Assembly: GCA_963642995.1 (NCBI GenBank)
Contig: CAVIIZ010000001.1
Location: 4,017 to 68,016 of the forward strand
Source: a bacterium
GTDB taxonomy: Bacteria > Actinomycetota > Coriobacteriia > Coriobacteriales > QAMH01
Direction: 5' to 3'
DNA length: 64,000 bases
Part shown: positions 49,609-55,088 of the stretch, one piece after another
How positions within the stretch are numbered: the stretch's first letter is position 1
Layout of the letters: the number at the start of each line of letters is the position of its first letter
The notes under the pieces: model-generated
Databases searched by the model: none
Told to the model about the DNA's origin: nothing
Seen by the model: the letters and a program-made list of their open reading frames with translations, nothing else
Program-made: the position numbers and the translations under genes

Positions 49609-49677
49609 GTGCACCACCCCTTTCGGGCCTCGCCGGGCCGCGTCCTTAAAGGTTTCGGTTGCCTCGGGATACTAGCA
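49609..49677 (-). promoter_or_regulatory. pyr operon promoter (extended -10 TGCTAGTAT) and 5' leader hairpin that can sequester the pyrR Shine-Dalgarno; candidate PyrR-binding site
   Basis: The - strand reads TGCTAGTATcccgaggcaaccgaaaCCUUUAAggacgcGGCCcggcgaGGCCcGAAAGGggugguga... then ATG. CCUUU pairs with AAAGG of the SD. The outer CCUUU-AA...GA-AAGG layout resembles PyrR binding loops, but the apical sequence differs from the UCCAGAGAGG consensus. Confidence 0.35.
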
Positions 49678-49754
49678 CCGCGCACCGCCTGCCGGCGGGT
49701 GAATCGGGTGAATCCCGCGGATGCGAAAAAGCCGCAGCCGAAAACCGCACGTCA

Positions 49755-49789
49755 CATGGCGGCTGCCACGTCGCCCTCCAAGGCGAGCG
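49755..49789 (+). repeat. 35-nt direct repeat, copy 1 (34/35 identical to 50942-50976)
   Basis: CATGGCGGCTGCCACGTCGCCCTCCAAGGCGAGCG. Copy 2 differs only by C to T at repeat position 24. Confidence 0.9.
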
Positions 49790-49809
49790 CGGCCAAGGAA
49801 GTCACCCGT

Positions 49810-49860
49810 TTGGCGAAGAGCGAGCATTGGTGCATAATGTGTAGCACGATGTGCTACACA
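49810..49860 (+). promoter_or_regulatory. promoter plus palindromic operator of the RHH/nucleotidyltransferase cassette
   Basis: -35 TTGGCG (49810-15), a 17-nt spacer, then TG-extended -10 CATAAT (49833-38). This is immediately followed by a perfect 10-bp inverted repeat, TGTGTAGCAC-gat-GTGCTACACA (49838-49860). AAAGGGGTGA and ATG 49873 follow. Confidence 0.55.
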
Positions 49861-49872
49861 AAAGGGGTGAAG

Positions 49873-50376
49873 ATGCGCAAGCCTACGGGAATACGGTTCA
49901 CGGACGAGGAGCACGCGGCGATAGCGTCGTATGCCGCCGCGCACGAGACCTCGTTTTCAGACGTCGTGAGAAAGGCAGTGCGCGAATTCACCGACCCCGA
50001 CCGGGACAAGGGCTACCTGACGCTCGCACAGATCGCCTCGACAGGCGGCGACGTCGAATTGGCGTTCGGGCAATTCCTCGACGACTTCGCCCACGCCCGC
50101 GACAAAGCAGCGCTCATCGCCGACGAGCCGCGATGGCCGCAGGAATACACGGGGCGTTGGCGCTACGACCTGGCCGCCGCCGCGCACAAGCTGGCCAACG
50201 ACAACGGCCTGCCCGTGCCCGCATGGTGCATCGAGGAGCGCTACTGCCCCGACGAGCCCCTGTGGGCCTTCGACACCGAGGATCCGCAGTTCCGCTCCTA
50301 CCTGCGGGAGAACACGCCGCGGGAGTTCCGCTGGCACAATCTGTTCCTCGGCCCGAACGTCTTGCAGAGGGCATGA
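49873..50376 (+). CDS. ribbon-helix-helix (CopG/Arc-like) DNA-binding protein with a C-terminal domain of unknown function; putative antitoxin/regulator
   Basis: 167 aa. IRFTDEEHAAIASYAAAHETSFSDVVRKAVREF is an RHH pattern. It has its own promoter and operator. The track ORF 49609..50376 is an artefactual N-terminal extension. Confidence 0.6.
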   Translation: MRKPTGIRFTDEEHAAIASYAAAHETSFSDVVRKAVREFTDPDRDKGYLTLAQIASTGGDVELAFGQFLDDFAHARDKAALIADEPRWPQEYTGRWRYDLAAAAHKLANDNGLPVPAWCIEERYCPDEPLWAFDTEDPQFRSYLRENTPREFRWHNLFLGPNVLQRA

Positions 50377-50421
50377 TGGCATGCTGACGAGAGAGAGCAG
50401 ATACAGCAATACCTTGCGGAA

Positions 50422-50907
50422 ATGGACGCCGAGCTCGCAAGCCGGGGATTGACAGGAGAGATAGTGCTGTGCGGCGGTGCCGTGATGGCCTTGGTGTATG
50501 AAGCCCGGCAGTCCACGAAAGACATCGATGCCCTGTTTGAGCCGGCTCGCGAGTTACGGCAAATCGCCGCGGAGATGGCGAGGCGCCACGGATTGGAAGA
50601 GGATTGGCTCAACGACGCGGCCAAAGCATTCATCGACACGTCGCGCATGTCGTTCACATCGATCATGAAGATGAAAGCGCTACGCGTCCTGCGTCCCGAC
50701 GACGAGGGCATGCTCGCCATGAAGCTCGCGTCCGCGCGAGAAGACAGCAAGGACGCTGACGACGCCGTCTTCCTCATCCGCCGCCTCGGCATCACGGACG
50801 AAGACGAGCTCCTCGACATGATGGAGCGCAATATCCCAAAGCGGATGCTCACACCCATGGCCGGCTTTTTCGCCAAGGAGATGTTGAAACGGTCGATTCG
50901 CGTTTGA
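50422..50907 (+). CDS. nucleotidyltransferase-fold protein (DUF6036 / AbiEii-MNT-like), putative toxin partner
   Basis: 161 aa. LCGGAVMALVYEARQSTKDIDALF matches the minimal-NTase G-x-a...DIDa pattern. It appears N-terminally truncated relative to an out-of-frame ATG at 50381 (see findings). Confidence 0.6.
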   Translation: MDAELASRGLTGEIVLCGGAVMALVYEARQSTKDIDALFEPARELRQIAAEMARRHGLEEDWLNDAAKAFIDTSRMSFTSIMKMKALRVLRPDDEGMLAMKLASAREDSKDADDAVFLIRRLGITDEDELLDMMERNIPKRMLTPMAGFFAKEMLKRSIRV

Positions 50908-50941
50908 CTGGGCGTCGACCGCACGCAAGACGCACCGAGGG

Positions 50942-52880: not shown

Positions 52881-53160
52881 CGCCAATCCGCAGCGCTCGG
52901 GCACCGAGAAGGGAGGCAGGCAAAGAGCCCGCGTTGGCGCCTTGTGGCCAAGATGCGGGCGCGGCGGAAAAGTCGACGGTCCCAGGCGGCTTGACGGCTC
53001 TTCTTGCAGACATCCTCGCGGTGCCCCGAAGACAAGGCGAGGGCGGCGCGACACATCCACTTGCCCGACAAGGCGTGTCGGATGAAGCAGGCGCGCTGCA
53101 GGCAGACGCGCGGCGGCCTGCTGTCGCGTGCAGGCGCGATGCCGTCGCCCGTCGCGCGGG

Positions 53161-53571
53161 CTACTCGAACGGGTTGACGACAGGCAGGTCGAGATAGGAG
53201 AAGTCGCGGATGTTCCTGGTCGCGAGGGCATGGCCTCCACATGCGCATATGGCCGCGATCATGAGGTCTTCTATGGTCGGGGTGCGCCCGCAGGAGATGG
53301 CCTGCTCGTGGTAGCGGGCGCACTGCTCGGCGGCGGCGGCGTCGAAGGGGAGGATGCGCGAGGCGTACCCCTGCACCAACGCGTCGATGCCACGTGCGAG
53401 TGCGCGGGACTTCTTGCCCTCGTCGAGCAGCAGCTGCCCGAAACGCAGCTCCTCGACGCTCACCGAGGACAGGAGCAGCTCGTCGGCATGCTTGTCCAAC
53501 CATGCGATGACGCGTTTGTCCGGCTGCCGTTTCAGCAGCTCCGATATGACGTTCGTATCGACGACGTACAT
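53161..53571 (-). CDS. vapC: type II toxin VapC/FitB (PIN domain ribonuclease)
   Basis: 136 aa. MYVVDTNVISE carries the first acidic residue. Also FDAAAAEQCARY and ATRNIRDF. Confidence 0.85.
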   Translation of the reverse strand: MYVVDTNVISELLKRQPDKRVIAWLDKHADELLLSSVSVEELRFGQLLLDEGKKSRALARGIDALVQGYASRILPFDAAAAEQCARYHEQAISCGRTPTIEDLMIAAICACGGHALATRNIRDFSYLDLPVVNPFE

Positions 53572-53583
53572 GACCCGCTCCGC

Positions 53584-53820
53584 CTACGAGACGATGCCCG
53601 TTATGCGCGGGGCATGGCGGCGCGGACACGCAAGGTCGATGCCATCCGCCGAATCGGCGACGTCGCGCAGGAGCGAGACCCAGCTGCCCGCGCGCGGGCA
53701 GAGGGCTTCTTCGAGGACGGCGCGCGCCTCCGCCTGCTGGCTCCTGCCGTTTTCCGCAGCCCGCAAGACGAGCGCGCGCTTCACGTCGTCGGGGACATCC
53801 CGGATGAGCAGGCTCGGCAT
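53584..53820 (-). CDS. vapB: type II antitoxin VapB/FitA-like (ribbon-helix-helix)
   Basis: 78 aa, starting MPSLLIRDVPDDVKRALVLRAAENGRSQQAEARAVLEEAL. A GGAGG RBS is present. The AT-rich upstream region has the direct repeat TGATAGC at 53878-84 and 53887-93. Confidence 0.7.
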   Translation of the reverse strand: MPSLLIRDVPDDVKRALVLRAAENGRSQQAEARAVLEEALCPRAGSWVSLLRDVADSADGIDLACPRRHAPRITGIVS

Positions 53821-54080
53821 GATCGCACCTCCATGACCATGGCGCCGCCGCCGAAGGGGGCGCCGGATGATGAATATTGATAGCGATGATAGCACGTCAT
53901 CGACAGCGGCATCGCGTGAAGTGCCGGCGAGTCTGGACGAAGACGCGTGAGAGGGATCGCCGCGTCCGCTCCTAGAGCCTCCAGCCCCGGGACGGGCCTT
54001 GCAGCAGCCTGCAGGCACGTCGCAGGGCTGGCCTTCAAATCCGAGGGGCAATGCTCACCGGCGGGAACGTGCCCAGCTGT

Positions 54081-54542
54081 TCATGCCTCGTTCAAACCGG
54101 AACCGGTTATCTCGTCGTAGCGCAGCCCCCGCTCCTCGAGCATGGCGACGACCTCGGAGGGCGCCGCGGTTTTCACCGTCGATGCGGCAAAGCCCTTCGC
54201 GTCGCGCGTGACGATGAAGTCCGCGTCCACCTTCACGGCCGAGATGTGGATCAGGCAGTCCTCGAAGTCGTTCCAGCACTCTTTCGCCGCGCTCTCGAGG
54301 TCCTCTTTGCCGAGCGTGCATATGTGGATGAACTCGAAGGACGCGAGGAAGGCGCTCTGCAAGACCTCGGATGCGAAGTGCTTTTTGCCGATGTAGAAGA
54401 TGTCCGTATACGACTTCGCGGACGCCCAAAGCTCGACGTCTTTGCAGATCCCCGCGGCGGCGATCGAGTTCACGTCCTCGCTGAACTGCTCCCGCTGGAG
54501 GTAGAAATCGGCCAAGACGTTGGTGTCAAGCAGAAGCTTCAT
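54081..54542 (-). CDS. PIN-domain toxin (VapC-like), second module
   Basis: 153 aa, starting MKLLLDTNVLADF. Also DFEDCLIH and FIVTRDAKGF. GC content is visibly lower than in the core genes. Confidence 0.75.
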   Translation of the reverse strand: MKLLLDTNVLADFYLQREQFSEDVNSIAAAGICKDVELWASAKSYTDIFYIGKKHFASEVLQSAFLASFEFIHICTLGKEDLESAAKECWNDFEDCLIHISAVKVDADFIVTRDAKGFAASTVKTAAPSEVVAMLEERGLRYDEITGSGLNEA

Positions 54543-54825
54543 AGTCGGCCGCCCTCCCCTTCTCGAGCTCGGCGGCAAAATCGAAGCTTGCGGGAAGCGG
54601 CTCTTTGAAGTTGCAAGTGGAACGCCGCAGCAGATCCGCAGCCCCGTCGCGTGCCGCACCTGCCGCCGTCGCAGCGCCCTCGCGCCCGAGGTCCAGCCCA
54701 CCGTCGAGGAACTTGAGATAGACGCCGTTTATGAACTGGGACGGAGTCGAGCCCGCGCTCCTGAGCTTTTGGTGCACCTGGTCTCTGACCTCGACTGGGA
54801 CTCTCGCCGACACCGTTGCAAGCAT
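54526..54825 (-). CDS. RelB/DinJ-like ribbon-helix-helix antitoxin of the second PIN module
   Basis: 99 aa, starting MLATVSARVPVEVRDQVHQKLRSAGSTPSQFINGVYLKFL. A GGGAGG RBS is present. It overlaps the PIN start by 17 nt. Confidence 0.6.
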   Translation of the reverse strand: MLATVSARVPVEVRDQVHQKLRSAGSTPSQFINGVYLKFLDGGLDLGREGAATAAGAARDGAADLLRRSTCNFKEPLPASFDFAAELEKGRAADYEASA

Positions 54826-54843
54826 TTCGTGCCTCCCAACTCC

Positions 54844-54858
54844 GTAATACCATATTAC
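54844..54858. promoter_or_regulatory. palindromic candidate operator upstream of the RHH/PIN module
   Basis: GTAATA-cca-TATTAC lies in an AT-rich stretch 19 nt upstream of the antitoxin ATG. Confidence 0.35.
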
Positions 54859-55088
54859 AACTATAGCACGGAATATGCAGGAAAACTGTGTCGTAGCGCG
54901 CACCGGCATCGTCTGCATCTTGGTCAACCCGGCGTTTCCCGATCCTACCAAGGGGGAAAGTTCTTCTTGTACGAAGGAGAGCTCCTCACCGACCGGCGCG
55001 ACAGGCTGAACGCGCGTTATTGACGAAAGCGCACCCGGCTGCCCGGATTCCGTTCGAGCCGGATTCGGTTGCCTCGTGTGCGACTAGC

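Follow-up and report, generated by a model that had tools for sequence, protein, structure and literature searches.

AbiE is a type IV toxin–antitoxin (TA) and abortive-infection system that pairs a two-domain AbiEi antitoxin with AbiEii, a nucleotidyltransferase (NTase) of the DUF1814 family (PMC3985639), and the MenAT systems are related to it (PMC11375011). The genes on which the PDC defense candidates of PADLOC are based lie within, or at most three open reading frames (ORFs) away from, BREX, DISARM, and type I restriction–modification (R-M) systems (10.1101/2024.01.29.577857). Genes that can be compared with both are found, together with PIN-type TA pairs and a radical SAM gene, in a variable segment of a Coriobacteriia chromosome, at positions 49716-55088 of the 64,000-nt stretch analyzed here (the window), between coaD and the pyr operon. 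An earlier note, written from the sequence of the window, took this stretch for the eroded remains of one defense or mobile island. In our analysis, the segment is probably a variable locus of long standing, a hot spot in one genus-level clade of high-GC Coriobacteriia/Eggerthellaceae-like bacteria, where genes have come and gone piece by piece around a resident radical SAM gene. In this it is ordinary for a bacterial chromosome.

The edges of the segment follow from nucleotide homology with sister loci (numbered with the prefix L). On the left, 88% homology to L097, L105, and L106 spans carA through pyrR and stops at 49705-49715; on the right, homology to L106 and L107 resumes at 55099-55113, in the 3′ end of coaD. 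A scan of species-representative genomes with PyrR listed family-level matches only (at most 69% identity), and among those listed, coaD lies within 10 kb of pyrR only in L010, with the local order rsmD-coaD-yceD-like-plsX. Closer loci were then obtained from protein searches followed by exact look-ups. In L106 (GCA_963617325.1, PyrR 87%), where all genes are on one strand, metG, AAA_5, DUF7192, and a 99-aa gene paired with a PIN_3 gene lie on one side of coaD; on the other, coaD is followed by a DUF6290 ribbon–helix–helix (RHH) gene with ParE, an intact AAA_14/DUF4143 gene (437 aa), the radical SAM gene, and pyrR. In L107 (coaD 90% at the nucleotide level), the order is AAA_5, a 725-aa gene, ORF6N, coaD, and the radical SAM gene, then, convergent, an intact NTase and a 167-aa RHH gene, and no PIN pair separates coaD from the radical SAM gene. 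The L097–L104 loci (PyrR 90%) have mnmA, AAA_14 (211 aa) with a 55-aa C-terminal piece, and a C-terminal fragment of VapC (81% identical to window VapC 105-136) before pyrR. In L105 (GCA_963629675.1, PyrR 90%), the start of an hsdR gene diverges from the adjoining pyrR, with no RHH/NTase cassette between the two. The families that recur around pyrR and coaD differ by lineage in order, side, orientation, and intact-or-remnant state, and some items (the ParE pair, ORF6N, FitA-VapC, PDC-S57) are present in single lineages. These piecemeal differences among sister lineages argue for a variable locus and not for one acquired island.

Contents vary also within the species. In contigs with identical CoaD (L081 and L083), a T5orf172 gene follows coaD on the opposite strand. 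The L081 allele, of which at least 232 aa are visible, matches PDC-S57 with an E-value of 2.5e-64 over profile positions 4-217 of 221 and T5orf172 with an E-value of 1e-11; L083 shows the undeleted allele over the 80 nt covered (the last 26 codons only). In the window and in L082, the start codon and 23 codons (54875-54943) are joined to the final 26 codons, which are out of frame and extend to 55023; these 49 codons, far from a full-length gene, match no family. The deletion removes ∼530 nt, with a junction at 54937-54942 (CCCGA-T-CCTACC) and a 3-nt microhomology, and the flanks are 99.5%–100% identical between deleted and undeleted alleles. By these alignments, the deletion is polymorphic among near-identical strains of one species. 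The earlier note had counted two gene remnants in the segment; with this one, next to coaD, the remnants are three.

The radical SAM gene appears to be a resident of the locus and not cargo, because it is conserved at the locus in L106 and L107, has a native-like GC content at third codon positions (GC3), and has a conserved promoter of its own. Its product is 94% identical at the amino acid level in L106, where the gene adjoins pyrR, and the gene is 92% identical at the nucleotide level in L107, where it adjoins coaD; its GC3 is 0.92 (vs. 0.89–0.95 in the pyr and coaD genes). The promoter region (52845-52887) shares 95% identity with L107 2481-2523 and is conserved also in L087/L088, and its −35/−10 region is kept in the three lineages (window, L107, and L087/L088) while the leader varies between 22 and 130 nt. 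The description of this gene in the earlier note as an orphan within the island does not agree with these data.

In the explanation that we prefer, the monocistronic radical SAM gene, with its BioB/HydE-type fold and its own promoter, would be the resident, and cassettes would be gained, shuffled, and lost singly around it. The cassettes seen are of TA type (FitA-VapC, RHH-like/PIN_3, and the RHH-X/DUF6036 nucleotidyltransferase) or of other types (the defense genes for type I HsdR and the T5orf172/PDC-S57 candidate, and an AAA/DUF4143 ATPase). Larger genes without a self-preserving property (hsdR, AAA, PDC-S57) are falling to ordinary deletions. From known TA biology, the PIN-type pairs would survive since deletions hitting them should be counter-selected, the labile antitoxin being lost and the stable toxin released; on the same grounds, each pair would be autoregulated from an AT-rich promoter/operator patch, which would correspond to the three AT-rich stretches of the segment. 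The segment would not move as a unit, and a recombinase is neither present nor needed. The toxicity, neutralization, and defense roles given here to the segment genes are predictions.

The reading of the earlier note, in which one integrative defense or mobile island was acquired once between pyrR and coaD and then lost its integrase and most of its cargo, is improbable. Its description of an accessory, variable, and eroding stretch with defense-gene remnants does hold (hsdR and the PDC-S57 candidate, to which the AAA/DUF4143 ATPase is added), and the hsdR and PDC-S57 remnants at one locus could be parts of one former system, since PDC candidates were defined near BREX, DISARM, and type I R-M systems. 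The sister lineages, however, share single components in differing positions and states and not a block, and the gene in the middle, for the radical SAM protein, is conserved at the locus in two of them with native codon bias. The comparison with relatives proposed in the earlier note confirms that contents differ among sisters, piece by piece and not by a whole block being there or missing. Composition, examined as also proposed there, gives a small dip: the GC content of the segment is 64.3% against 68.1% in the rest of the window (67.7% for the whole window), rank 2 from the lowest among 586 same-size windows. An equal dip (∼64.4% GC) occurs at 15.7–21 kb over ordinary genes (DltD, DltB-type MBOAT, DltA, RecX, and RecA), so that the dip in the segment is poor evidence for foreign origin. 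A 16-nt near-repeat with one mismatch is present at both segment edges (49651 and 55061) and could be taken for att sites, but chance alone should give about one pair of this kind in 6.1 kb with such a composition, and the left copy belongs to the conserved pyrR leader; we reject it. Profile scans of all segment ORFs, spare ORFs included, detect no integrase, recombinase, or transposase domain, and the alternative ORFs of the unassigned stretches match no Pfam family. There is no tRNA in the window, as the earlier note had also said of integrase, transposase, and tRNA genes in this stretch. The segment has no Rfam match at E ≤ 0.1 (two matches, to one snoRNA and one sRNA model, both have E 0.28 and are taken as chance) and no nucleotide match to plasmid or phage records, and no relative of the NTase was found in viral contigs. 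The features by which an integrative island is recognized (an integrase or recombinase, a tRNA or att site, flanking direct repeats) are thus not found in the segment.

An ancestral gene set, inherited vertically as a fixed cluster of the chromosome in which TA genes happen to be included, is also unlikely. The radical SAM gene, the 99-aa/PIN_3 pair, AAA/DUF4143, VapC, hsdR, and RHH/NTase each occur close to pyrR or coaD in one or more sister lineages, and the GC3 of most segment genes is high (0.85–0.92). Against this, order, orientation, side of coaD, and intact-or-remnant state vary at 87%–90% PyrR identity, the RHH/ParE pair of L106 is absent from the window, no PIN pair separates coaD from the radical SAM gene in L107, presence and absence are polymorphic within the species, and the four contexts already suggest differing TA and defense families at the site. 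The same content and order throughout, which the earlier note gave as the outcome that would speak for ancestry, is not what L105, L106, L107, and L097–L104 display. High GC content produces many long spurious ORFs and the AAA remnant is without a profile match, which raises the question of whether the remnants are assembly or gene-calling artefacts. This is very improbable: three independent assemblies (L082, L084, and L085; one NCBI metagenome-assembled genome and two Logan runs) reproduce the window sequence at 99.3%–100%, the hsdR and PDC-S57 remnants align by nucleotide with genes that are longer or intact elsewhere among the samples, and the two ends of the AAA remnant correspond to those of an intact gene from a neighboring lineage. 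Several points weigh against the variable locus that we favor. The hot spot rests on few genomes, with four sister contexts only, three of them cut by contig ends, so that the ancestral order cannot be reconstructed; and the species-representative scan gave no PyrR closer than 69% among the matches listed. In the L097-type lineage, a 95% identical radical SAM gene lies elsewhere, after secDF-recJ-relA-MBL, and is therefore not fixed at the locus in every relative. Lastly, a 35-nt repeat around the RHH/NTase cassette and different repeats in L107 hint at some insertion mechanism.

Table 1. Features of the variable segment and its borders (window positions)
Feature	Position	Strand	Basis or remark
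Conserved pyrR leader, left edge of the variable segment	49609..49715	-	Nucleotide homology to L097, L105, L106
35-nt direct repeat, left copy	49755..49789	+	Brackets the RHH/NTase cassette
Predicted promoter of the RHH/NTase pair, TTGGCG-17-CATAAT	49810..49838	+	Consensus scan
Antitoxin-like RHH protein, 167 aa: N-terminal RHH and uncharacterized ∼110-aa C-terminal domain	49873..50376	+	DUF6290/RelB-type RHH, residues 7-38, E 1e-5
DUF6036-type minimal nucleotidyltransferase, frameshifted	50381..50907; longest in-frame ORF 50422-50907	+	PF19502 27.3 bits (cut-off 23.6)
35-nt direct repeat, right copy	50942..50976	+	34/35 identical to the left copy
hsdR remnant	50977..51337	+	TIGR00348 E 2e-9, 36.4 bits (cut-off 284.55); PADLOC REase_I E 9e-11, profile 407-450
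AAA_14/DUF4143 ATPase remnant, N- and C-termini fused, ∼50 codons	51426..51578	-	Alignment of termini to the L106 protein
Radical SAM gene, intact, 332 aa, BioB/HydE-type full-barrel fold	51708..52706	-	PF04055 43.4 bits (cut-off 29.5)
Predicted radical SAM promoter, TTGCCC-18-TATACT	52851..52880	-	Consensus scan
VapC, PIN-domain toxin, intact	53161..53571	-	PF01850 45.5 bits (cut-off 23.6); VapC NCBIfam models
FitA-like RHH antitoxin (VapB), intact	53584..53820	-	PF22513 58.8 bits (cut-off 27)
PIN_3-domain toxin-like gene, intact	54081..54542	-	PF13470 64.1 bits (cut-off 27)
99-aa RHH-like, antitoxin-like partner of PIN_3	54526..54825	-	Weak YlcI/YnfO N-terminal match
T5orf172 (GIY-YIG-like)/PADLOC PDC-S57 defense-candidate remnant, adjoining coaD	54875..55023	+	Intact allele in L081
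coaD, right edge of the variable segment	55089..55583	-	PF01467

The gene calls in 49618-55088 were checked with Pfam, NCBIfam, and PADLOC profiles (Table 1). From the list in the earlier note, the RHH/nucleotidyltransferase cassette on the plus strand, the hsdR remnant with an internal deletion, the 50-codon AAA/DUF4143 remnant, and the FitAB-like VapB/VapC pair are all borne out. In the last of these, fitA lies 12 nt upstream of vapC on the same strand and the acidic residues D5, E41, D102, and D123 of VapC are present; the pair has the sequence characteristics of a type II TA system of the VapBC (FitAB-like) type. An exact-protein look-up for VapC, like one for the radical SAM protein, found nothing. 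The second pair had been described as RelB/DinJ-like plus PIN. The PIN part stands, as a PIN_3 domain, but the 99-aa partner reaches no curated antitoxin model: it has no Pfam match and, in NCBIfam, a weak one to YlcI/YnfO_N (21.6 bits against a cut-off of 30, residues 4-32). The two genes overlap by 17 nt, and the pair is conserved in L106 (73% and 71% identity for the 99-aa and PIN_3 proteins) with the overlap unchanged.

In the RHH/NTase cassette, the NTase family start MLTxxQIxQYLxE is common to all 13 aligned homologs (13/13) and locates the ATG 4 nt past the RHH stop, a spacing also present in L107. At codons 5-6, the window has a +2 frameshift, with two extra bases in a GA run (∼50391-50399): the site reads ATGCTGACGAGAGAGAGCAG where L107 has ATGTTGACGAGAAAGCAG, and the runs themselves differ as ACGAGAGAGAGCAG versus ACGAGAAAGCAG. 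The window NTase is in frame only from Met14 on. The same slippage frameshift is present in L084 and L085. In L107, the NTase is intact (174 aa), the RHH protein (also 167 aa) is 86% identical, and the promoter-like stretch before the pair is conserved too. The earlier note had considered that only addictive TA modules, and perhaps the radical SAM gene, stay intact; this is true of both PIN pairs and of the radical SAM gene, but not of the NTase in the first TA-type module.

Outside the RHH domain, the partner of the NTase belongs to a family of its own. Among 80 metagenome loci with NTase relatives, 67 have a same-strand upstream ORF, and in 33 of these 67 that ORF is homologous (jackhmmer) to the C-terminal ∼110 residues of the window RHH protein. 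The N-terminal DNA-binding part is exchanged among relatives, being HTH_3, a NikA/TacA-like RHH, or none. A HMMER search of 1.84 billion representatives gives 200 relatives at E ≤ 1e-3, mostly stand-alone proteins of 120–130 aa. The motifs of the partner domain are GQFLDDF, LAAxAHKLANDNxLxVPxW, YAFDT, and EFxxRN. In the AlphaFold2 (AF2) model of the RHH protein (predicted local distance difference test, pLDDT, 92), RHH antitoxins are matched by the first 45 residues only, and the remainder has neither a fold match in the PDB or BFVD nor a match in Pfam; a sequence-profile search of the PDB yields no relative of either the RHH protein or the NTase. For the NTase, the AbiEii/DUF1814 profile PF08843 gives 16.8 bits (cut-off 22.5), over the first 50 residues only, and the PADLOC AbiEii profile 23 bits; the partner, an RHH N-terminus followed by a domain without family or fold match, does not correspond to AbiEi, in which a winged-helix domain at the N-terminus precedes the C-terminal domain. 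We also considered a HEPN protein, as in the HEPN-MNT (type VII TA) systems, defined by a HEPN fold and an Rx4-6H motif. This identity is rejected: the window protein has REFRWH, but 29 relatives do not keep the His (most have RN), and the structure search gave no HEPN fold. In the literature searched, we found no mention of DUF6036 or of PDC-S57. On the sequence evidence, the pair is a candidate AbiE-like two-gene module of an uncharacterized family, damaged in the window genome.

The 35-nt direct repeat that brackets the cassette has just two copies in the window (none expected in shuffles), and the right copy abuts 50977-50980, from which point on the sequence is homologous to L105 hsdR. 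In L107, the cassette is bracketed by different repeats, of 43 nt (124-166/1381-1423) and 26 nt (196-221/1356-1381). Direct repeats as a general trait of NTase cassettes are rejected, because they are seen in the window and L107 only and in none of 22 distant cassettes. It is conceivable, though rather doubtful, that the RHH-X/DUF6036 pair represents an undescribed TA or abortive-infection family with AbiE/MenAT-like logic, the repeats a novel mode of insertion, and the radical SAM protein a new housekeeping reaction of anaerobes.

Two further remnants follow the cassette. Compared with the hsdR start in L105, the hsdR remnant is without its promoter and ∼41 N-terminal codons. Positions 50980-51178 are 87% identical to codons 42-108 of L105 hsdR; the reading then jumps from ...VEVRFSDG (51178) to an FTGT helicase motif and ends shortly after. 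Since tblastn matches to plasmid hsdR genes also fall into two separate blocks, the internal deletion is real. A full-length HsdR has a nuclease and a superfamily 2 (SF2) helicase; here ∼120 codons are left, in the two blocks. No hsdM or hsdS gene is present among the ORFs of 49.6–55.1 kb, the part of the window that was scanned for them. The AAA_14/DUF4143 remnant lies in an ORF of 57 codons (51426-51599). In the alignment with the intact 437-aa protein of L106, MFKRRAYDKLLEWK at the N-terminus of the remnant pairs with MLERKAYARMRAWK, and GDLVRLPLYMAHL at the C-terminus with GKVLYLPVYFVSL. As both ends align to this sister-lineage protein, the remnant call is reasonable; there is in addition a weak tblastn match to the start of an “AAA family ATPase,” and no hidden Markov model of Pfam or NCBIfam matches.

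The radical SAM protein has its CxxxCxxC motif at residues 66-73, with C66, C70, and C73 invariant in 25 relatives. Further invariant residues are C197, H56, H163, H205, and H270, and C268 is nearly invariant; C197, the four histidines, and C268 together suggest an auxiliary metal site. The AF2 model (pLDDT 89.8) is a full barrel, for which Foldseek finds as closest structures a type II BioB (8vdw) and HydE, with a template-modeling (TM) score of 0.8 and 14%–18% identity. With the BioB model TIGR00433, the protein scores 41.3 bits (cut-off 225), and it is 16%–18% identical to solved BioB structures. The term “BioB-like” used in the earlier note fits the fold, but the protein is not a member of the BioB family. 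The 1709 homologs (49%–95% identity) come from Eggerthellaceae, Syntrophomonas, Desulfitobacterium, Nitrospirota, and others, and in every context seen, the gene is monocistronic, without conserved neighbors. A riboswitch or leader RNA in the 445-nt gap before the gene is rejected: no Rfam family matches, the leader differs in length between lineages with conservation limited to the promoter, and folding gives a z-score of −0.7. In the more distant L090, two radical SAM paralogs (11103-12107 and 15438-16448; 31% and 41% identical) lie within 6 kb of the radical SAM gene, adjoining a methyltransferase, an aminotransferase-fusion gene, and an ABC transporter. In L087, whose radical SAM gene is 95% identical, part of the ribosome-binding site and of the first codons of the gene is repeated upstream, at ∼400-440, ahead of a run of N; this copy is probably a scaffolding artefact.

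The AT-rich patches pointed out in the earlier note are confirmed: 51540-51700, before the AAA remnant, has 49% GC; 53870-53900, before fitA, 35.5%; and 54830-54900, flanked by the 99-aa gene and the T5orf172 remnant, 46.5%. Each is within the lowest 0.02%–0.25% of same-size windows, and the three patches sit at predicted promoter/operator positions. The AT-rich gap that separates the AAA remnant from the stop codon of the radical SAM gene contains, at 51620-51650, a perfect inverted repeat of 10 bp, GAATTCCATG-9 nt-CATGGAATTa, which could be a terminator or an operator.

On the minus strand of the window, recG, rsmD, an S26-like peptidase, metG, an AAA_5 ATPase, a 692-aa DUF7192 protein, and coaD precede a 5.4-kb break, beyond which lie pyrR, pyrB, pyrC, and carA. 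The spacing between rsmD and coaD is ∼6.4 kb (55670-62000), filled by the peptidase, metG, AAA_5, and DUF7192 genes; in the distant relative L010, rsmD adjoins coaD. The AAA_5/DUF7192 pair is kept in L081, L106, and L107, and the DUF7192 protein has a long Gly/Asp/Ala-rich low-complexity middle that differs in length among strains. Between the DUF7192 gene and coaD, L107 has an ORF6N-domain gene (3103-4044, 313 aa) that is absent from the window, so that variation extends to the far side of coaD as well.

The segment is a small and clean example of a known process, in which TA pairs, presumably self-preserving, outlast restriction and other defense genes at a variable site, with decay caught in progress, the PDC-S57 deletion being still polymorphic within the species. 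It brings nothing new on mechanism. Mildly new are the uncharacterized partner domain of the DUF6036 nucleotidyltransferases and a conserved stand-alone radical SAM family of BioB/HydE fold without assigned function.

Compared with known systems, the window VapBC follows VapBC/FitAB in the FitA-like RHH antitoxin immediately upstream of a PIN toxin with its acidic residues, and has nothing unusual; the second pair shares the arrangement of a PIN toxin overlapping an RHH-like partner, and an AT-rich promoter patch precedes each pair, but the PIN_3 partner stays below every curated antitoxin model. With defense islands and hot spots such as those of the PADLOC PDC systems (10.1101/2024.01.29.577857), the locus has in common an hsdR, a T5orf172/PDC-S57 gene, and TA pairs at one variable site, with strain-level presence and absence. 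It differs in that both defense genes of the window are dead, in the lack of hsdM and hsdS among the segment ORFs, and in being organized around a conserved, non-defense resident gene. That gene encodes a protein that resembles BioB, HydE, PylB, and ThiH, the full (βα)8-barrel radical SAM enzymes, in the CxxxCxxC motif and the fold, and departs from them in its low identity, in scores far under the cut-offs of the BioB, HydE, and PylB models, and in its own set of invariant residues. The RHH/NTase pair is, like AbiE and MenAT, bicistronic, with an upstream protein made of a DNA-binding and a second domain and a downstream Pol-β-type nucleotidyltransferase with GG...DxD motifs, and the DNA-binding domain is exchangeable among its relatives. 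In contrast to AbiE and MenAT, its nucleotidyltransferase family is of DUF6036 type (∼175 aa) and not DUF1814, with the window copy frameshifted, and the partner combines an RHH, an HTH_3, or no DNA-binding domain with a ∼110-aa domain that has no match in Pfam, the PDB, or BFVD and no HEPN Rx4-6H motif.

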